Below, in pieces: positions 44,675 through 57,049 of a stretch of 64,000 nucleotides of DNA. Both the position numbers and the translations under genes were made by a program. Numbering within the stretch: the first letter of the stretch is position 1; every line of letters begins with the position of its first letter. Origin of the DNA: a virus (Duplodnaviria; Caudoviricetes); the IMG/VR virus record IMGVR_UViG_3300012983_000031, positions 96,001-160,000 of that record; one strand, written 5' to 3'. A model generated the notes under the pieces. The model was not told the DNA's origin. It saw only the letters and a program-made list of their open reading frames with translations, and searched no databases.

Positions 44675-44748
44675 CGCGGGGTGGAGCAGTTGGTAGCTCG
44701 CCAGGCTCATAACCTGGAGGTCGCAGGTTCGATTCCTGCCCACCGCAA
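44675..44748 (+). tRNA. tRNA-Met(CAT), initiator-like
   Basis: CGCGGGG start, CCAGG-CTCATAA-CCTGG, GGTTCGATTCC; C1 unpaired, irregular acceptor stem. Confidence 0.85.
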
Positions 44749-44757
44749 CTAAGATGC

Positions 44758-44830
44758 GCCTCAATAGCACAGTGGCTAGTGCAGCTGATTTGTAATCAGC
44801 AGGTCGTTGGTTCGAATCCGACTTGAGGCT
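44758..44830 (+). tRNA. tRNA-Thr(TGT)
   Basis: Cloverleaf; GCTGA-TTTGTAA-TCAGC. Confidence 0.93.
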
Positions 44831-45098
44831 CAAATCCAAACTACCGAATGAGGATAATAATAAATTCGGCTGATATAGACGAAACTATCAGATGTAGCAT
44901 TAGCATCGGTTACTGGAACGAGTGGTGATCGTAAACAGATTAATAAACGTATAAGCCTGATGTGAATAACACAAAAGTTAGACGTGGGTGCAGTTTATGT
45001 TTCAAGAAAACGCTGAAATTGAAAGTCGTAACCAGCGATGTTGGTTTAATCTACTGCCCAGAACAACAAGATAAAAACTCAATACGATATCAGCACAC

Positions 45099-45173
45099 GG
45101 GGGATTAGCTCAGTTTGGCTAGAGCACCTGCTTTGCACGCAGGGGGTCATCGGTTCGAGTCCGATATCCTCCA
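45099..45173 (+). tRNA. tRNA-Ala(TGC)
   Basis: Cloverleaf with G3:U70. Confidence 0.95.
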
Positions 45174-45219
45174 CAAAATATGACAGTTTAGAGAAATTGT
45201 TCATTAATTTATGCATCAG

Positions 45220-45293
45220 TGTGTATTAGTTCAGCTGGTTAGAATGCCTGCCTGTCACGCAGGAGGTCACGGGTTCGAGTCCCGTATGCACAG
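45220..45293 (+). tRNA. tRNA-Asp(GTC)
   Basis: CCTGC-CTGTCAC-GCAGG. Confidence 0.93.
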
Positions 45294-45352
45294 CAAATCT
45301 TTGTCATTTTTGCCTACCTCGAAAAAGAGGATGACTTTTTTGACAAGAATAT

Positions 45353-45500
45353 GGAAGACATACAGCAAAACTTTGAATAAACTTCCTAGATTCAATTTTG
45401 TTTAACTATGGCAAAAACTTTAGTCTTCTGATTATTTAAGGCACGCGTACAGCAAAAAAACTTTTATTTTCATTTTGGGATCAAAAAAGTTTGCGTGCTG
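45353..45500 (+). ncRNA. Two tandem copies of an unannotated stem-RTACAGCAAAA-stem structured element
   Basis: GGAAGAC/GTCTTCT and GGCACGC/GCGTGCT closing stems; third copy at 50532-50589. Confidence 0.55.
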
Positions 45501-45505
45501 TTTTT

Positions 45506-45579
45506 AGGGTAGTATTTCAGTTGGTTAGAATTCTGCATTTGGGATGCAGAGGTCGCACGTTCGAGTCGTGTCTACCCTA
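45506..45579 (+). tRNA. tRNA-Pro(TGG)
   Basis: CTGCA-TTTGGGA-TGCAG. Confidence 0.92.
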
Positions 45580-45586
45580 CTACATC

Positions 45587-45682
45587 GGAGGGATAAGCCT
45601 AATTGGTAAGGCAGTGGTCTTGAAAACCACCAGTAATCAACTAAGACTTGATGTGTCGGTTCGAGTCCGACTCCCTCCTCCA
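45587..45682 (+). tRNA. tRNA-Ser(TGA)
   Basis: Long variable arm, encoded CCA. Confidence 0.9.
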
Positions 45683-45687
45683 GGAGA

Positions 45688-45778
45688 GGTGGGTTACCCA
45701 AGTTGGTGAAGGGGGGACATTGCTAACGTCCTAGGTCAGCTAATACCTGGCGCGGGGGTTCGAGTCCCTCACCCACCG
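45688..45778 (+). tRNA. tRNA-Ser(GCT)
   Basis: GGACA-TTGCTAA-CGTCC, long variable arm. Confidence 0.88.
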
Positions 45779-45868
45779 CAACAAAATAACAAACATATGA
45801 TGAACTTCATAAAACATAAGAAACAATAGTTCATCCGTAACCAGATGAGTTATGGATGAATGATTTAT

Positions 45869-45941
45869 GTATCCATAGCTCAGTAGGTAGAGCAACAGAC
45901 CTTTAATCTGTGGGTCGAGAGTTCGAGTCTCTCTGGATACA
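45869..45941 (+). tRNA. tRNA-Lys(TTT) with non-canonical C33
   Basis: ACAGA-CCTTTAA-TCTGT. Confidence 0.88.
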
Positions 45942-45962
45942 CAAAAGACACTAATGTGAAGC

Positions 45963-46961: not shown

Positions 46962-47186
46962 ATGAGCTGGTTTACTGAAAGCAACCGTAAAAAGCATTTC
47001 TTCTATGGCATCCCTGTTGGGTTCGTGTTTACGATCCTTTGCGCTCTTGGTGTTGCATCTGGAATGGAGTTTAAGGATAAGCTATATGGAAACAAATGGG
47101 ATTGGATTGACTGGTCGATGACAATGGCAGGAGGTCTTGTCGGACAGATTTTGCAGGCTGTTATTTTATACTTTATATTTAAGTAG
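46962..47186 (+). CDS. Small membrane protein
   Basis: KH...EFKDK...WDWIDW motif, hydrophobic segments. Confidence 0.75.
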   Translation: MSWFTESNRKKHFFYGIPVGFVFTILCALGVASGMEFKDKLYGNKWDWIDWSMTMAGGLVGQILQAVILYFIFK

Positions 47187-47328
47187 ATCGGAGCAGCAAA
47201 CATTCGAAATATACAATTGAACATTCAATGAAAGAAGCAAAAAATATAAAACAAAAATAGAATTTAAAGCATAAATGAGGGATGCCTTACGATATATAAT
47301 TTGAGAATTGGTGGCGATTTTGAAAAAC

Positions 47329-47359
47329 TACGGCTAATCAAAAAAAGAGCCGTATTTTT
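47329..47359 (+). terminator. Probable terminator upstream of the nuclease locus
   Basis: TACGGCT/AGCCGTA plus TTTTT. Confidence 0.55.
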
Positions 47360-47453
47360 GCAAAAAAAATAATCTAATGCTTATATAATGTACTAAACGA
47401 TAAAAATTTTTTCGTGTTTGAATTAATTTTTATCGTTTTTTCTTTTCTATGTC

Positions 47454-47480
47454 AAATAAAAGTTGTAACTTTGCAACATC
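47454..47480 (+). promoter_or_regulatory. Host-type promoter driving the TnpB/Cas12-like locus (TAACTTTG 47466-47473)
   Basis: AAATAAAAGTTGTAACTTTGCAAC. Confidence 0.8.
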
Positions 47481-47514
47481 AAACGAAATTAATAACTCAT
47501 AAATTAAAAAGAAT

Positions 47515-48789
47515 ATGGCTAATATCGCTGTCAAGTACAGAATATATCCTACCAAAGCACAAAGGAATTTTATTAATAAAAACATTGGTGCGAACAGATG
47601 GTTCTGGAACTATTGCATCGAGAAGAAGCAGAACGCTTATATTGAAAGCAAAAGAACAGGTGATAAAGCGTTGGCACGTATTGATGGTCAAACATTACGT
47701 GGTCATGTTAAAACATTAAAAGAAGAAGAAGAGACAAAATGGTTAAAGGATGTAAAGTTAAATTCCTTTAATTATGTTGTTGAACATTTTGATGAAGCAT
47801 ATAAAAGGTTTTTTGAAAAAAAAGCTGGAAAGCCAAAGAAGCATAAAAGAACAAGATCTGGCGCATTCACAACTCAAATTACTAAAGCTAGAAATATAGA
47901 AAATCTTATTGATTATAAGAATAATCGTATATATCTTGGTAAATTTATCAAAAACGAAAATGGTGAACCAGAACGTTTTGTAAAAGCCAAGATTCATAGA
48001 AAGGTTGATGGTACAATCATGAACATGACAATATCAAAAGATATTGATAATAGATACTATATATCTTTTTGTTTGAAGGTTGATGATTGGAAAAAGCCAA
48101 AGTCTCCAACATTAGATGGAACTATTGGTATAGATATGGGAATGTCAGAGGCTGGCGCTCTTTACGGATCTGATTTAAAAGTTAGATATGGATCTGATAA
48201 TATTGCTGGACTAACGGATAAAATAAACCGTATGGAAAGGCATTTAAAGAAATGGAGCAAAATAAAGTCAAAACGTTATAGCATTGAACGTAAGAAAAAA
48301 CGTACAGGGCAATCCAAAGGATATGTTGAAGCTGTTGAAAAATGTGCTGTTATACAATGCAAAATAAATCGTTTAAAATCTTATATAACTCATATGATGA
48401 CATCATCGATTGTGCATTGTGAGAATATTGATTCAATCGCAATAGAATCTTTGGATGTTAAAGAGATGATCGAGAAAAAGACAACAAACAATTTAAAAGA
48501 ACAAAAGGCTCGCAAGAGGAGAGCAAGAAGAAACCGCATCGTTCGTCTTGGCGAAATTTCCAGGCAACTTGAGTATAAAGCTGAAATAAATGGAAAGAAT
48601 TTTGTTAAAATTAATAAATGGTACCCATCTTCAAAAACATGTTCAGTGTGTGGATATAAAAATGATAATCTGAAATTAACTGACAGGTCTTGGGTTTGCC
48701 CTCACTGTCATACAGAACATCATAGAGATTTCAATGCTGCTGAAAATATTAAAAATGAAGGGTACAGGATGTTAACAAGTAAGAATTGA
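47515..48789 (+). CDS. tnpB: CRISPR-associated TnpB-like RNA-guided nuclease (miniature type V / Cas12-like effector)
   Basis: IS605 OrfB-type N-terminus (KYRIYPT...RWFWN), RuvC-I GIDMG (D207), RuvC-II IAIESL (E311), CSVCG/CPHC zinc finger, RuvC-III HRDFNAA (D405); adjacent to a CRISPR array. Confidence 0.92.
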   Translation: MANIAVKYRIYPTKAQRNFINKNIGANRWFWNYCIEKKQNAYIESKRTGDKALARIDGQTLRGHVKTLKEEEETKWLKDVKLNSFNYVVEHFDEAYKRFFEKKAGKPKKHKRTRSGAFTTQITKARNIENLIDYKNNRIYLGKFIKNENGEPERFVKAKIHRKVDGTIMNMTISKDIDNRYYISFCLKVDDWKKPKSPTLDGTIGIDMGMSEAGALYGSDLKVRYGSDNIAGLTDKINRMERHLKKWSKIKSKRYSIERKKKRTGQSKGYVEAVEKCAVIQCKINRLKSYITHMMTSSIVHCENIDSIAIESLDVKEMIEKKTTNNLKEQKARKRRARRNRIVRLGEISRQLEYKAEINGKNFVKINKWYPSSKTCSVCGYKNDNLKLTDRSWVCPHCHTEHHRDFNAAENIKNEGYRMLTSKN

Positions 48790-48799
48790 TCATAATATA

Positions 48800-49030
48800 A
48801 AACGTTGGTCGCGTTTCAGACCCTACCCGTGTGTAGCGGGAATGTAATGTCCGTGGACAGATTTGTCGATTTAATCGATTGAACTTTTGTTCAACAGTGG
48901 CGTTCTTGATACATTTGTAATCGTAGAATAGTTGCGGAATGTGATTTGAAGCGGAAAAAATGAAATGACATCGGTCATTTCACCAAGCAGAACGTAAGTT
49001 CTGTATACAATATTTCTCCATAGCTCTTTG
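48800..49030 (+). ncRNA. Putative tracrRNA / omega-RNA-derived scaffold
   Basis: Anti-repeat segments at 48915-48924 and 49008-49022; several hairpins, including a perfect 9-bp stem at 48961-48982. Confidence 0.6.
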
Positions 49031-49055
49031 ATATACACAATGTTATACAACATAA

Positions 49056-49532
49056 GCTGTTTATTATGGCGAAATGTTGGATGGTTACAACTTAAACCAC
49101 ATGAATGATGATGATCCAGCGCTGTTTATTATGGCGAAATGTTGGATGGTTACAACTACGGGACAGTTCAAGAGAATAAATGATGGCTGTTTATTATGGC
49201 GAAATGTTGGATGGTTACAACGATATTCATAAGGCTCCTTCCTGTTCTAAGCTGTTTATTGTGGCGAAATGTTGGATGGTTACAACCCTACGATCTTTAA
49301 GCCATCTTTCATTGATGCTGTTTATTGTGGCGAAATGTTGGATGGTTACAACAGACAGTTGCACCAGATGACTGTTTATTGTGGCGAAATGTTGGATGGT
49401 TACAACTAACCCATTCGCCTCCTTGATGACGAGCCAGCTGTTTATTATGGTGAAATGTTGGATGGTTACAACTAGGATTTCTCCCTTCAGATTCTTGCTG
49501 TTTATTGTGGCAAAATGTTGGATTGTTACAAC
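49056..49532 (+). CRISPR. CRISPR array, 8 repeats (36 nt) and 7 spacers
   Basis: Repeat GCTGTTTATTRTGGCGAAATGTTGGATGGTTACAAC at 49056, 49121, 49186, 49251, 49317, 49371, 49437, 49497; spacers 29, 29, 29, 30, 18, 30, 24 nt; repeats degenerate toward the distal end. Confidence 0.97.
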
Positions 49533-49576
49533 CAAAAATAAATATCAAAAGCCAAAAAACAAACCAATAAATTAAA

Positions 49577-49888
49577 ATGGCAGCTATTCAAGAAATTTTT
49601 AATGCAGCGTTTTGGTACATGGCACCAATTCTTGTTGCGCTTTCTACAACTGTTACGGGTCTTGTGAATCAATGGTTCAAAATCCCTGATAAGTTTAAGC
49701 AACTTGCATCCTGGATTGTGGGCGCAGTTCTTTCCTGTGGAGCAATCTTCTTTGGATTCCTTGGTGAAAGCATAGGATGGCCAAGTTACATTGCGTTAAG
49801 CATCGTCGTGGGTCTATCATCAAATGGTATCTATGACATTGAAGCTATTAAGAAAATTATAGATTCATGGTTTAATAAGAAGAAATAA
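49577..49888 (+). CDS. Holin-like membrane protein
   Basis: Three TM helices, GLSSNGIYD motif, basic C-terminus. Confidence 0.65.
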   Translation: MAAIQEIFNAAFWYMAPILVALSTTVTGLVNQWFKIPDKFKQLASWIVGAVLSCGAIFFGFLGESIGWPSYIALSIVVGLSSNGIYDIEAIKKIIDSWFNKKK

Positions 49889-49909
49889 TTTCATTCAATA
49901 ATAGCGTTT

Positions 49910-49946
49910 TCGATCCGTTGTCATCTTACAATGGGTCGATTTTTTT
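49910..49946 (+). terminator. Rho-independent terminator
   Basis: TCGATCCGTTGT/ACAATGGGTCGA plus T-tract. Confidence 0.75.
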
Positions 49947-50078
49947 ATTTTTTCGTTAAAATGTTTTTCTATGTCGAAAATAAGTTGTATCTTTGCAACG
50001 GAATTAAAAATAATTACAAAATGAATATCTCATATGTTCTTAGAGAGTTCAGATGTTACATTAATTGTAAGTTGAAAC

Positions 50079-52701: not shown

Positions 52702-52775
52702 GCTCCAGTAGCTCAGTTGGTTAGAGCAACGGACTGTTAATCCGTGTGTCGGTGGTTCGAGCCCACCCTGGAGCG
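52702..52775 (+). tRNA. tRNA-Asn(GTT)
   Basis: ACGGA-CTGTTAA-TCCGT. Confidence 0.95.
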
Positions 52776-53078
52776 CAAAATAAGAAAAATAAGTAATTGT
52801 ACCACAGACCGCTGAAAGCAGTAAGGATTCCAAATTAGATAAATCAAATAGGTAGCCGTACTACCGAATTTACGCTTGTGGACTATCCAACTATGGATGA
52901 ACGTGGTTTACCACCTAAAAAGTAGTGATAGGTTGAAGCAAGAAATAAAATGTATGAGATTCATAGATTTTCATAGAATTTTATATACGGTAATATCATA
53001 TGTAAAGACTTACAGGCGTACAGCTATTAAGAGGAAATAAACGTTAAAGCGAGGTTGTTCCTTTATTTTTCTTATTAT

Positions 53079-53162
53079 GGCTTCATGGTGGAATGGTAGA
53101 CACGAGGGACTTAAAATCCCTTGGGCATTGCGCCCGTGCGGGTTCGAGTCCCGCTGAAGCTA
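53079..53162 (+). tRNA. tRNA-Leu(TAA)
   Basis: AGGGA-CTTAAAA-TCCCT, long variable arm. Confidence 0.94.
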
Positions 53163-53167
53163 CAACC

Positions 53168-53249
53168 GTTCCTGTGGCGGAATTGGTAGACGCGTCAGAC
53201 TTAGGATCTGATGTCTCATGACGTGCAGGTTCGAGTCCTGTCAGGAACA
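53168..53249 (+). tRNA. tRNA-Leu(TAG)
   Basis: TCAGA-CTTAGGA-TCTGA. Confidence 0.94.
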
Positions 53250-53254
53250 CAAAT

Positions 53255-53326
53255 TGCCCTGTAGTATAATTGGTAGTACAACAGATTTTGGTTCTGTCGG
53301 AACAGGTTCGAATCCTGTCAGGGTAA
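53255..53326 (+). tRNA. tRNA-Gln(TTG)
   Basis: ACAGA-TTTTGGT-TCTGT. Confidence 0.92.
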
Positions 53327-53350
53327 CAAGTAACAAACTTAAGCATAAAT

Positions 53351-53524
53351 ATGTTAAGACGTGATGAATTGATAGAACTTTCTGGACAGGTCATTAATGG
53401 CATGATGTCTGCTGACAATAACATATGGGTACAGTTGCTTGACAGAACTGTACACATTCAGGCAGCAAAGACAGCTGTAGCGATTGCAAATGACATGCTT
53501 AAGGAAATTGATAAGCTTGAATAA
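53351..53524 (+). CDS. Small hypothetical protein (57 aa) within the tRNA cluster
   Basis: MLRRDELIELSGQVINGMMSAD...AVAIANDMLKEIDKLE. Confidence 0.65.
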   Translation: MLRRDELIELSGQVINGMMSADNNIWVQLLDRTVHIQAAKTAVAIANDMLKEIDKLE

Positions 53525-53525
53525 T

Positions 53526-53600
53526 CTCTGGTTGGCTGAGTGGTCAAAGGCGACGGTCTGCAAAACCGTAAAACCAGCGGTTCGAATCCGCTACCAGAGT
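53526..53600 (+). tRNA. tRNA-Cys(GCA)
   Basis: ACGGT-CTGCAAA-ACCGT. Confidence 0.92.
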
Positions 53601-54179
53601 CTAATTATAGTTGACAAAATCAATGAGTAGTATTTCTCTGTTTGTTCCTTTGCTTATATTTTGTTTATTATTGAAGTAAGCGTAGATTCTTGGGAACCAA
53701 TCGTCAATTAATCTCGGTGCCATAACCGAAGAATACTTTCCTTCTTCCGATGGTTTGTGTTTGAATGAATAATCATTTTCATAATTATACAAATTATTGC
53801 CGCACCAAAACTTGATGTCTGGCAATTCTTTTTCTATTGCACTGCAAAAATTACGGAATCGTTCGACATTATTTGCAGTGTATTCTTTTTTTGTCCTTGC
53901 TTCGTGCAACACTCTGACGTAGCAGTCTTTCTTGTTGTTGATGTATTGAAGATCCTTTGCCATTTGTTTAGGTGTGTAGTCATACACATATTTTCCATGA
54001 GCGAACAATGTTTTACCGTCTTTGTCATATTTGACACGAAGATCGAAGCATCTTACTCCATATTTTTCATATTGTGTCTGGATGTCATAATCCTGACATT
54101 GAGCCATAAAGTGAAACAGATTCATCCACCATTTTTTACCTTTCAAATATGACCATGAATTGTGTGATCCGAGTATCAT
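53601..54179 (-). CDS. PI-PLC-like phosphodiesterase (truncated TIM-barrel type)
   Basis: GSHNS, AQCQ...IQTQ...GVRCFDLRV...HG X-domain motifs. Confidence 0.75.
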   Translation of the reverse strand: MILGSHNSWSYLKGKKWWMNLFHFMAQCQDYDIQTQYEKYGVRCFDLRVKYDKDGKTLFAHGKYVYDYTPKQMAKDLQYINNKKDCYVRVLHEARTKKEYTANNVERFRNFCSAIEKELPDIKFWCGNNLYNYENDYSFKHKPSEEGKYSSVMAPRLIDDWFPRIYAYFNNKQNISKGTNREILLIDFVNYN

Positions 54180-54420
54180 ATGTATATATTTTTTCTTTTA
54201 TTATATTTATATTAATAAATGATTATGAAAATATTAATAAAAATAATGTACAAAATGTATCTTAATATTTTTCATATTATCGTATTTTGTGTCACATATG
54301 TAGAAAATTAGATACAAAATTGTAACTTTTTCAAAACATTTCAGGAATTTGGAAACATAACAAGATAAATAAGGAAACGATGATCAGCGGGTAGAATATT
54401 AAACCAAAACGATAATCATT

Positions 54421-55230
54421 ATGAAAAAATTCTTTATCAGCGTGTTATGCTTCTTGTCATTCGGATTATATAATTCCGCAATGGCACAAAATTCTACGGT
54501 TGATCAGAAAATTCCAGATTTCAACAATAGTGGTAAGTACATCGGAAGTAAGAAGAACGGAAAGATGCATGGAAAGGGAACGTTCGAGTGGACAAATGGA
54601 GACAGATTTGAAGGAAATTTCCAGGACGGAAAGATTAACGGATATGGTCGTTATTCATGGGTAGATGGTGATGTGTATCAAGGAGACTTTAAGAATGGGG
54701 TTCAAGATGGATTTGGTTCAGCATTCTATGCTTCTCGTTGCAACACTTACGAAGGTGAGTGGAAGAATGGAAAGAGAAACGGTCATGGTAAGTTGACATG
54801 GGCGAACGGTGATGTTTACGAAGGTGAATGGATCGATGACGTTCGAGTTGGGGATGGTGTGTTCACGTCTGTAAATGGTGACAAGTATGTTGGTCATTAT
54901 GAAAATAATCAACGTAATGGTTACGGTACATATTATTATAATAATGGTGACGTTTATGTCGGTCAATGGATAAATGGAGAGAAAGAGGGTCTTGGCAAGT
55001 ACACTTATGCGAACGGCAACGTTTACGAAGGTCAGTTCTGCAATTCATACATAGAGGGTCAAGGAACTTTCATTTGGTCTTCAGGTGCAACTTACACAGG
55101 TCAGTTCAAAGAGGATATGCGAAATGGTGTAGGTACATACACTACTGCTGGAGGGAAAGTTATTTCTGGTAGCTGGAAAGACAATCGTTTTGCAGGTGAC
55201 AAGGGAAATATTGATGTGGCGATGAGATGA
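54421..55230 (+). CDS. Secreted MORN-repeat protein
   Basis: Signal peptide plus about 9 YxGxWxxGxxxGxG repeats. Confidence 0.9.
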   Translation: MKKFFISVLCFLSFGLYNSAMAQNSTVDQKIPDFNNSGKYIGSKKNGKMHGKGTFEWTNGDRFEGNFQDGKINGYGRYSWVDGDVYQGDFKNGVQDGFGSAFYASRCNTYEGEWKNGKRNGHGKLTWANGDVYEGEWIDDVRVGDGVFTSVNGDKYVGHYENNQRNGYGTYYYNNGDVYVGQWINGEKEGLGKYTYANGNVYEGQFCNSYIEGQGTFIWSSGATYTGQFKEDMRNGVGTYTTAGGKVISGSWKDNRFAGDKGNIDVAMR

Positions 55231-55284
55231 ATAATATAATTATTCAGATAAATAGCTGTAAAGATTAATTCAAAAGATAAAAAG

Positions 55285-56568
55285 ATGAAAAAATTATTTT
55301 ACTTGCTGTTTGTTTTTTGCTTTGTTGTGTCTTGCCAGGACTATGATTATTACACTGACGAGTACAAGAGCAACGGTATTGAATACGAGAATGTTTTCAG
55401 AAGTTATGTTGGCGGCGATGTCGCTCCCGATCAGACATGGGGATTTGGTTCAAAAGATGTTGGTACGAGAAGCACATATCCTAATTCAAACATGTGGGAA
55501 GATGAAGGATATGTAGTTCCTGATCCCATCACAGATGCTGAGGTTGAAAAGGTAAAGGCTGTGTTCGCAGAGAAGATGCCAGAAGGTTATGTGTGTGAAA
55601 GCCTTGTTGACTGGGATAGTTTCTTTGTTCAGCATGTTTACAAGGGTGATTCCATATATAAGAACGGATACAACCAGGATGTTGTTGGTTCTGATCATAT
55701 GGATTGGCTGTGTTCATATTCTGACAAGGAACGCCAGATTATATCATATTATCCATATGAGGATAGGCTTGTTAATGTGGAAGGATATGACGACCACATC
55801 TACAATTTCAACGCGGCGTTCGGCTCCATACAGTTGATGTATGATACAACAACAAAGAGATTCGGTTTCCACAATTCAGAGGACAGTAAGATACATTACA
55901 ATTTCAGGATGGTTGAAATTGATGGCGCGTATTATGTTGGCTTTGATTTTGAGGGAGATTTAATGGTTCCTTGGGGCGAGAACCTTAATTCTGACGTTCC
56001 AAGAGACTATGTGTTCGATGATTGGATTGTAAAAATATGTCCAGGAAAGGGTGACGGCGGAAACAAAAAGAAAGATGAAGACAAATATTGCAGGATAATT
56101 GTAGAAGATCTTGTTGCAACAAATAATCTTGAACACTTAACGGAATCGGATTGGGATTACAATGATGTTGTATTTGATGCATATATTGAAGATGGAGTTG
56201 CTCATATTAGAGTTGTCGCAGCAGGAGGTACTCTTCCTTTATATGTTGCTGAAAGAGAAGTTCATGATTTGTTTGGTCTTTCACAACGTCTTCCTGTTAA
56301 CGTTGGCACTGGATTGGATCTCGATCCTGTTGAATTCACAATAAATGTTCCGTTCACTGACATCAACATGATACCAGTTGTTGTTTACAACAATGGAACA
56401 GGATACGAACTCCTTTCAAAGATGGGGCAGGCTCCAGCAAAGATTTGCGTAGGAACAGATTATCAATGGTGCAAGGAACATCAGCACATAAAGAGCAAGT
56501 ATCCTAAGTTCGTTGAGTGGGCTACACAAAACCCAAAGGATTACGAAGACGGTTATTGGTACAAATAA
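55285..56568 (+). CDS. Bacteroidota-type lipoprotein with DUF4842/LruC-like C-terminal region
   Basis: VVS-C lipobox; IVEDL...DWDYNDVVF...AAGGTLP. Confidence 0.7.
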   Translation: MKKLFYLLFVFCFVVSCQDYDYYTDEYKSNGIEYENVFRSYVGGDVAPDQTWGFGSKDVGTRSTYPNSNMWEDEGYVVPDPITDAEVEKVKAVFAEKMPEGYVCESLVDWDSFFVQHVYKGDSIYKNGYNQDVVGSDHMDWLCSYSDKERQIISYYPYEDRLVNVEGYDDHIYNFNAAFGSIQLMYDTTTKRFGFHNSEDSKIHYNFRMVEIDGAYYVGFDFEGDLMVPWGENLNSDVPRDYVFDDWIVKICPGKGDGGNKKKDEDKYCRIIVEDLVATNNLEHLTESDWDYNDVVFDAYIEDGVAHIRVVAAGGTLPLYVAEREVHDLFGLSQRLPVNVGTGLDLDPVEFTINVPFTDINMIPVVVYNNGTGYELLSKMGQAPAKICVGTDYQWCKEHQHIKSKYPKFVEWATQNPKDYEDGYWYK

Positions 56569-56592
56569 ATGACAACAAATTATATTACTTTT

Positions 56593-56624
56593 GAAGGTTT
56601 TTAGAAATAGAAACCTTCTTTTTT
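56593..56624 (+). terminator. Rho-independent terminator
   Basis: GAAGGTTTTTA/TAGAAACCTTC plus T-tract. Confidence 0.65.
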
Positions 56625-56685
56625 ACATTTTTAACATAATTTTTTTTGTTATTTAAAATAAAAGTTGTAACTTTGCAACATCAAT

Positions 56686-56758
56686 GCAGCAATAGCTCAT
56701 CTGGCAGAGCGTCAGGCTTCCATCCTGAAGGTGGTGAGTTCGATCCTCACTTGCTGCT
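56686..56758 (+). tRNA. tRNA-Gly(TCC)
   Basis: TCAGG-CTTCCAT-CCTGA; directly after a host-type promoter (56668-56675). Confidence 0.9.
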
Positions 56759-56954
56759 CAAACAACATTAGGCTCATCATAGTTTGGCTTTAGGATAAGC
56801 GCGGTTGAGGATTTGATCACCTTGGCGACGTTGTGCTGACACCGATGGCGAATTAAGATAAGAATTGTAACACTACGAGACGGCTCTGTGAGTGTCTGAC
56901 ATGATAGGTTACGCCTGCAGGAATTCTGATTTTGATTATATGTGAGTCTAATTC

Positions 56955-57028
56955 GCTCTCTTAGCTCAGTTGAATAGAGCAACAGATTTCTAATCTGTGG
57001 GTCGAGGGTTTGAATCCCTCAGAGAGTA
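56955..57028 (+). tRNA. tRNA-Arg(TCT)
   Basis: ACAGA-TTTCTAA-TCTGT. Confidence 0.9.
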
Positions 57029-57049
57029 CTATTTTAAAATCAAAACATT

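Follow-up and report, generated by a model that had tools for sequence, protein, structure and literature searches.

Systems that are intermediate between transposons and CRISPR, termed TranC, were described in 2025 (Jin et al., Cell 2025, doi 10.1016/j.cell.2025.09.004; as cited in PMC13565253). As described there, TranC loci combine a TnpB-derived nuclease with a downstream array, split the guide into a tracrRNA (derived from the reRNA/omegaRNA) and a crRNA, and carry no adaptation genes. A phage-encoded representative of TranC clade 9, called CauTranC9, is TnpB-sized (mean 414 aa), active and has a compact PAM, and the same preprint reports a consistent tracrRNA structure only for TranC clades 3 and 11 (bioRxiv 10.64898/2026.03.27.714800). 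The candidates designated type V-U* are TnpB-like clades that are consistently linked to downstream arrays without cas1, cas2 or cas4 (Altae-Tran et al. 2023, PMC10691335). For the transposon-encoded ISDra2 omegaRNA, the solved structure reveals a pseudoknot in which positions -5 to -3 pair with a loop region beside stem 1 (PMC10097598).

The locus described here lies in a stretch of 64,000 nucleotides (the window) taken from the IMG/VR phage record IMGVR_UViG_3300012983_000031. We propose, with a probability of roughly 0.78, that the interval between a TnpB-like nuclease gene and a CRISPR array in this window specifies the tracrRNA for a TranC-type TnpB-CRISPR system carried by the phage. Because transposon-to-CRISPR intermediates have already been described as TranC, the locus should be viewed as a new example and not as a new principle. 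With those systems, as they have been described, it shares the TnpB-derived nuclease, the downstream array, the split guide and the lack of adaptation genes. In contrast to TranC, however, the proposed tracrRNA keeps a hairpin (H6) at the position of omegaRNA stem 4, and behind it comes the repeat:anti-repeat helix as an extra element.

The other systems offer similar partial likenesses. By description, CauTranC9 resembles the locus in being phage-borne and TnpB-sized, in having a small array and in being without expanded REC or WED domains; compared by description only, it has a 38-bp repeat present five times, whereas the locus has a 36-bp repeat present eight times. The type V-U* candidates can be likened to the locus by their class description, as a TnpB-like clade with a downstream array and no cas1. 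ISDra2 and the canonical Bacteroidota elements (our L110, L114, L102 and L119) have full-length protein homology to the locus, scaffold homology over hairpin H1, the GAAGC motif and two 3' hairpins, and a comparable pseudoknot between the H1 loop and the bases just before the guide. Unlike IS200/IS605 elements, the locus has no TnpA, is present in a single copy and carries a candidate phage promoter, and its pseudoknot strand and guide would come from the CRISPR repeat and spacer instead of the scaffold RNA. Cas12f systems are similar in using two contacts, one a pseudoknot next to the guide (repeat:anti-repeat 1) and the other a longer duplex farther away (repeat:anti-repeat 2), but the protein of the locus is TnpB-like, and the part of it with which PDB Cas12f chains align is confined to the zinc-finger region of TNB (E of 1e-3 or weaker).

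A nuclease gene and a CRISPR array in a phage genome

The window belongs to a tRNA-rich, 220-kb IMG/VR phage record that is approximately 60% complete. Within it, the scaffold interval is flanked by the TnpB-like nuclease gene (47515-48789, plus strand) and by an array of eight 36-nt repeats ending in ACAAC (49056-49532, plus strand), which starts 266 nt 3' of the nuclease gene end. Searches of the 220-kb record (about 60% complete) uncovered neither Cas1 nor a Y1 transposase (TnpA), and the nuclease gene is present only once. The locus is therefore neither a transposon, given the lack of TnpA and of multiple copies, nor a full CRISPR locus, given the lack of Cas1. Upstream of the nuclease gene is a candidate phage promoter (47440-47489, plus strand), a promoter-like member of a family of direct repeats (D2; copies at 47440, 49962 and 51758) that includes a TAnnTTTG-type motif, which we take to be the Bacteroidota -7 box. 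An Rfam scan of positions 47000-50000 returned only a chance miRNA match, no DNA-level match to the locus was found among INPHARED phages, and a motif scan of IMG/VR with the H1 region yielded no match. The window also contains 15 tRNA genes, which form two clusters (44676-45942 and 52702-57029) located on either side of the nuclease-array locus.

The 424-aa product of the nuclease gene (P0001) was identified as a TnpB-like RNA-guided nuclease by using NCBIfam, Pfam and structure-chain alignment. It scores 216 bits against the NCBIfam model guided_TnpB (cut-off 100), carries the Pfam domains HTH_OrfB_IS605 and TNB, and gives a full-length alignment to ISDra2 TnpB (8bf8; E 7e-31). The RuvC triad is intact, with D207, E311 and D405 opposite D191, E278 and D361 of ISDra2. 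The guided_TnpB score and the full-length alignment place the protein in the IS605/IS607 TnpB lineage. Sequence membership in Cas12f (type V-F) was not found beyond the common TNB/RuvC core, as PDB Cas12f chains align only with residues 347-413 or 282-414 (E 3e-4 to 1e-3), whereas TnpB chains match the full length of P0001. We also place the protein outside the LaTranC clade because LaTranC (PDB 9jfo) aligns only with its C-terminal 155 residues (E 8e-14).

Conservation of the gene order among relatives

Relatives were gathered through protein searches and contig look-ups, and reside mostly on large phage contigs. The same order, in which a nuclease gene is followed by a scaffold RNA of approximately 200-270 nt and then by an array of 36-37-nt repeats ending in ACAAC, occurs in 11 lineages (window/L002, L004/5, L006, L007, L010, L011, L012, L014, L015/16, L017 and L095). 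The L002 nuclease is 98% identical to that of the window, and the nucleases of the remaining lineages are 35-47% identical. A tree that also included 20 TnpBs without arrays sets the ten array-bearing proteins apart by one bipartition (SH-aLRT 100). An adjacent, downstream array is thus an evolutionarily conserved feature of these 11 lineages.

In five lineages (L004, L006, L007, L010 and L014), TAnnTTTG motifs occur 5' of the scaffold, and in L004 an unrelated ORF is present between the nuclease gene and the scaffold. These two observations indicate that the scaffold is a gene in its own right. Among the lineages, L010 has two peculiarities. Its nuclease gene has an in-frame TAG (L010:1352-1354) where relatives have K or R, which could signify a pseudogene, a sequencing error or stop-codon recoding, and the 3' half of its scaffold is rearranged.

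Architecture of the scaffold RNA

An nhmmer profile derived from the 11 scaffolds spans window positions 48809-49054 (E 3e-34), although this value serves to define the envelope only and is no independent evidence, because the window scaffold is among the profile's training rows. Together with predicted ends, the profile outlines a candidate tracrRNA-like scaffold at 48809-49024, which, like all its parts described below, is on the plus strand. Hairpin H1 (48826-48840; stem 48826-48829 with 48837-48840, loop 48830-48836) is found in 11 of 11 lineages and is followed by H2 (48848-48859). H3 (48866-48878) and H4 (48879-48894) are insertions limited to long-scaffold lineages; they exhibit compensatory differences between the window and L004, L006 and L007, and are missing from the six short-scaffold lineages (L011, L012, L014, L015, L017 and L095). 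A variable hairpin, Hv (48903-48928), has 48915-48924 as its 3' arm and folds weakly as a local hairpin (-9 kcal/mol, z -0.4).

The 3' portion of the scaffold begins with a conserved GAAGC sequence and A-run (48948-48960), which is succeeded by H5 (48961-48982; -10.0 kcal/mol, z -7.6) and by H6 (48988-49003), a hairpin with a GNRA tetraloop that is, by order, the counterpart of omegaRNA stem 4. Every lineage has a hairpin at the H5 position; two to five pair types occur per level over stem levels 1-8, and a single one at level 9. H6 is kept in nine of the ten lineages counted (L010 was left out, and L017 has no fold there), with two to four pair types per level and with GUAA, GCGA or GUGA loops. 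Both of these hairpins are maintained by compensatory change across lineages.

The original prediction for this interval, made from the window sequence alone, had listed three hairpins, and all are present as H2, H4 and H5. It had also proposed a long-range pairing that involves the 5' end of the interval. This pairing does form in the minimum-energy fold (approximately 48809-48820 with 48945-48955), but it is supported by no other lineage and uses sequence that several relatives do not transcribe. The same single-sequence fold misses H1. RNAalifold applied to MAFFT alignments gave few or no pairs because hairpin registers shift between lineages, and for this reason each hairpin was folded per lineage and its pair types were counted by stem level. 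Helices proposed by RNAduplex over the whole scaffold were rejected as long-loop artefacts.

Descent from an omegaRNA

When all collected loci were searched with the scaffold profile, it also hit multi-copy Bacteroidota TnpB genes that have no array (E ~1e-17). The hits fall in the omegaRNA region, which overlaps and follows the 3' ends of these genes. The matched canonical TnpBs come from Bacteroides, Phocaeicola, Parabacteroides, Paraprevotella, Prevotella and Rikenellaceae as well as from many gut phage contigs. Alignments reveal that the scaffold and the canonical omegaRNAs have in common H1, the conserved block that follows it, the variable hairpin, an A-rich stretch, the GAAGC and A-run motif and two 3' hairpins. 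Because of this homology, the suggestion that an omegaRNA scaffold became a tracrRNA is supported, and a tracrRNA and crRNA that arose from a split reRNA/omegaRNA would fit the profile match, the presence of the pseudoknot strand in the repeat and the co-variation of both contacts discussed below.

Copies of the canonical elements diverge directly after an 8-nt tail located behind stem 4 (the second 3' hairpin), the point at which the scaffold gives way to the guide. The 8-nt tail includes four bases that are complementary to the H1 loop. The phage locus does not show the layout characteristic of IS200/IS605 elements, in which a single RNA has a scaffold that closes with the pseudoknot strand and the guide comes next, at the right-end boundary, since a conserved anti-repeat follows H6 and the ACAAC-type terminus is on the repeats. 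The resemblance that had been proposed between the segment running from GAAGC to TTCAC and the 3' end of omegaRNAs is correct for GAAGC and the A-run, which are homologous to omegaRNA sequence. It does not extend to TTCAC (48979-48983) as a terminus, which is the 3' arm of H5, and in real omegaRNAs the GAAGC motif lies approximately 75 nt before the 3' end. According to the alignments, what corresponds to the omegaRNA terminus in the phage locus is not TTCAC but the repeat end. The descendant of stem 4 could be either H6 or the repeat:anti-repeat helix.

Two contacts between the scaffold and the crRNA

A split anti-repeat had been proposed, with one part at 48915-48924 and the other at 49008-49022. 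The former matches repeat positions 26-35 at all ten bases (two G:U; -8.1 kcal/mol), as had been claimed. The latter, which we call the main anti-repeat, pairs with repeat positions 10-24 at 14 of 15 bases (one G:U, one mismatch; -13.9 kcal/mol) and can be extended to 49007-49024 (-16.7 kcal/mol). When the scaffold was subjected to dinucleotide shuffling, 11% of the shuffles reached the energy of the best 18-nt window (the main anti-repeat, -16.7 kcal/mol), and 65% gave a perfect helix equal to or better than that of 48915-48924. Neither pairing is beyond chance within one sequence, and therefore we used comparison across relatives to decide between them.

This comparison favours the distal duplex. 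The main anti-repeat has a constant position, 2-4 nt after H6, and co-varies with the core of its own repeat in 10 lineages, such that the cognate duplexes sum to -150 kcal/mol versus -103 +/- 9 kcal/mol when permuted (P<5e-5, with a permutation that ignores relatedness). Its pairing with the repeats co-evolves, and this half of the split anti-repeat is real. Pairing may be extended to the 5' end of the repeat by the leader (49023-49055). The guide-proximal half is not supported, and the loop of H1 appears to take its place.

The H1 loop has an invariant GUGU core, in which UGU is followed by two variable bases, and the repeats have an invariant ACA-AC terminus with two variable bases before it. 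We propose a pseudoknot between loop bases 48832-48836 and repeat positions -3 to -7. Five contiguous pairs between the H1 loop and its own repeat can form in eight of ten lineages. The pair at repeat position -7 is G.U, C-G, U-A or A-U, and that at -6 is A-U, G-C or G.U; at these two variable positions, 17 of 20 cells pair versus 12.0 when permuted (P 0.0025, again with relatedness ignored by the permutation). One pair type is common to L012, L017 and L095, and a U x U mismatch is present in L014 and in L010, which has the broken nuclease gene. At least three independent pair switches would be needed to produce this pattern. The predicted H1-loop contact has the same arrangement as the pseudoknots of ISDra2 and of the canonical Bacteroidota omegaRNAs. 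As with Cas12f, the repeat would thus make two contacts, one of its positions -7 to -3 with the H1 loop and one of its positions 10-24 with 49008-49022. Two other segments were considered as pseudoknot partners and rejected. L011 has no counterpart of a UUGU string 5' of H3, which in the window could form only 4 bp. A segment just 5' of the A-run is not consistently placed and overlaps with a motif whose conservation does not depend on the repeat sequence.

Proposed mechanism and alternative explanations

We envision that the tracrRNA has retained an omegaRNA scaffold that is nearly whole, from H1 through H6, and that it would fold like an omegaRNA and bind the nuclease, whereas the anti-repeat at 49008-49022 would have taken the place of the guide and of the pseudoknot strand that once formed the 3' terminus. 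The crRNA would consist of the 3' part of the repeat plus a spacer, and would dock through two contacts. Its repeat core would form a tethering helix with the anti-repeat beside H6, and its bases -7 to -3 would pair with the H1 loop and thereby supply in trans the pseudoknot strand. A pseudoknot adjoining the guide is required by every TnpB/Cas12 guide. The 424-aa nuclease, with its intact RuvC triad, would then cut DNA that matches the spacer, presumably in competing phages or other mobile elements. The window scaffold is probably co-transcribed with the nuclease mRNA, while at least five relatives have a predicted promoter dedicated to the scaffold. The direct basis for this model is synteny, homology to omegaRNAs and the co-variation of both contacts; RNA ends, processing, DNA cleavage, PAM and spacer acquisition we only infer.

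One might instead retain the idea of two separate anti-repeats, as in Cas12f, with 48915-48924 forming the guide-proximal duplex and 49008-49022 the distal duplex. The 10-of-10 complementarity of 48915-48924 is real, the hairpin that contains this segment is weakly stable, and within the window lineage no contact made by the last 14 nt of the repeat is stronger (-9.8 kcal/mol, compared to -2.9 to -6.7 kcal/mol with foreign repeats). However, in addition to the ease with which shuffled sequences equal or beat its helix, the segment belongs to a hairpin position for which the six short-scaffold lineages have no equivalent, and where the other lineages have unrelated hairpins without matching complementarity, such that no preference for the cognate repeat 3' end is evident across lineages (P 0.13). 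The segment would also compete for the very repeat bases that are used by the conserved, co-varying H1-loop contact. We therefore judge a two-anti-repeat arrangement to be improbable, and we see a similarly small chance that 48915-48924, which is complementary to the repeat in the window alone, serves there as an extra contact.

The retention of almost the entire omegaRNA fold might also be explained if the interval produces a stand-alone omegaRNA with a fixed guide, either in the 20 nt after TTCAC or after H6, that functions independently of the array or alongside it. Pairing in cis with the H1 loop is conceivable for a short UACA-like string directly after H6 (49006-49009), and TranC systems are reported to use both RNA forms (PMC13565253). 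Yet the 20 nt after TTCAC, which had been put forward as a possible guide, are the conserved, GNRA-capped hairpin H6, and the sequence beyond H6 is conserved in step with the repeats, as an anti-repeat and not as a free guide, and, as judged indirectly from a repeat search, matches only the repeats in the 220-kb genome. A fixed guide therefore seems very unlikely. Finally, the array could be a phage mini-array that serves a Cas system of the host, with the adjoining TnpB gene and omegaRNA being unrelated to it. This proposal agrees with the absence of adaptation genes from the phage and with the inverted termini of the repeats (GYUGU...ACAAC), a feature that is common in other CRISPR types. 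It is scarcely credible, however, given that the nuclease-scaffold-array order is found in 11 lineages down to 35% protein identity and that two scaffold sites co-vary with the repeats.

Implications for the origin of split guides

If the interval is indeed a tracrRNA of the TranC type, then its architecture bears on how an omegaRNA is divided. In the textbook splitting scheme, stem 4 of the omegaRNA is opened. A tentative scenario, which we consider rather unlikely, is that the split in this lineage did not occur by simple opening of stem 4, as the complete omegaRNA body including H6 is kept and the anti-repeat is located where the ancestral pseudoknot strand and guide began. The first 'crRNA' would then have been captured by the guide segment of an omegaRNA. 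If true, such capture would represent a distinct route from transposon guide to CRISPR, and this route may have arisen in Bacteroidota jumbo phages, where arrays turn over without phage adaptation genes. The canonical omegaRNA relatives from the same host phylum provide an outgroup for testing this splitting scenario.

To our knowledge, TnpB-sized CRISPR effectors are the smallest programmable nucleases, and they mark a step from transposon guide to CRISPR. The locus and its ten related lineages yield an RNA model that distinguishes core hairpins from dispensable inserts and that predicts the sites of both crRNA contacts. In a recent preprint (bioRxiv 10.64898/2026.03.27.714800), most TranC clades, including a phage clade of similar size, yielded no consistent tracrRNA structure, and therefore the model could guide the design of single-guide RNAs. 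The detailed RNA model, with its retained hairpin at the stem-4 position and an anti-repeat where the ancestral pseudoknot strand and guide began, may be new.

Array, leader and additional observations

The seven spacers of the window array are 29, 29, 29, 30, 18, 30 and 24 nt in length. The array of L002, whose scaffold is nearly identical to that of the window, has nine repeats (L002:1864-2390, compared with window 49056-49532). Because only two spacers, located mid-array, are common to L002 and the window, we conclude that the arrays turn over, and the pattern points to recombination or deletion rather than to simple addition at one end. Several spacers in these two arrays are short (15, 18 or 24 nt). 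A search of INPHARED with the whole array identified no protospacer; a single 24/25-nt match (E 0.5) spans a repeat-spacer junction and was treated as noise. The spacers also have no self-targets in the 220-kb genome. Loose automatic extraction of spacers across loci was dropped, as it returned only false 'spacers' in homologous regions.

The repeat termini in all 11 lineages are imperfect inverted repeats of the form 5' GYUGU(A)...(U)ACAAC 3' (for example, window 49056-49091). In the pre-crRNA, the H1 loop could thus face competition for the pseudoknot strand from the repeat's own 5' end. The L006 array (L006:3211-4037) is a mixture of two repeat variants that both pair with the scaffold tail, and the 3' arm of H5 together with the 5' arm of H6 is strongly complementary to one variant (about -30 kcal/mol).

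Between the anti-repeat and repeat 1 is the leader (49023-49055, plus strand), which was delimited by cross-lineage alignments and duplexes. A motif 8-30 nt 5' of repeat 1 is conserved beyond the repeats in the window and in L004, L006, L007, L010, L012, L015 and L095. The motif might promote transcription of the array, act as a leader signal when spacers are integrated, or lengthen the anti-repeat toward the repeat 5' end. We also considered whether the stretch might be a 'degenerate repeat zero', and note that it is more conserved between lineages than are the repeats.

An orphan fragment of the scaffold family is present elsewhere in the window, at 52867-52945 (plus strand) between tRNA-Asn and tRNA-Leu genes. 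It matches profile positions 42-125 (E 2e-10), is closest to the short-scaffold lineages, and is without H1, an adjoining nuclease gene or an array. This fragment is likely to be either what is left of a second locus or a piece that acts in trans.
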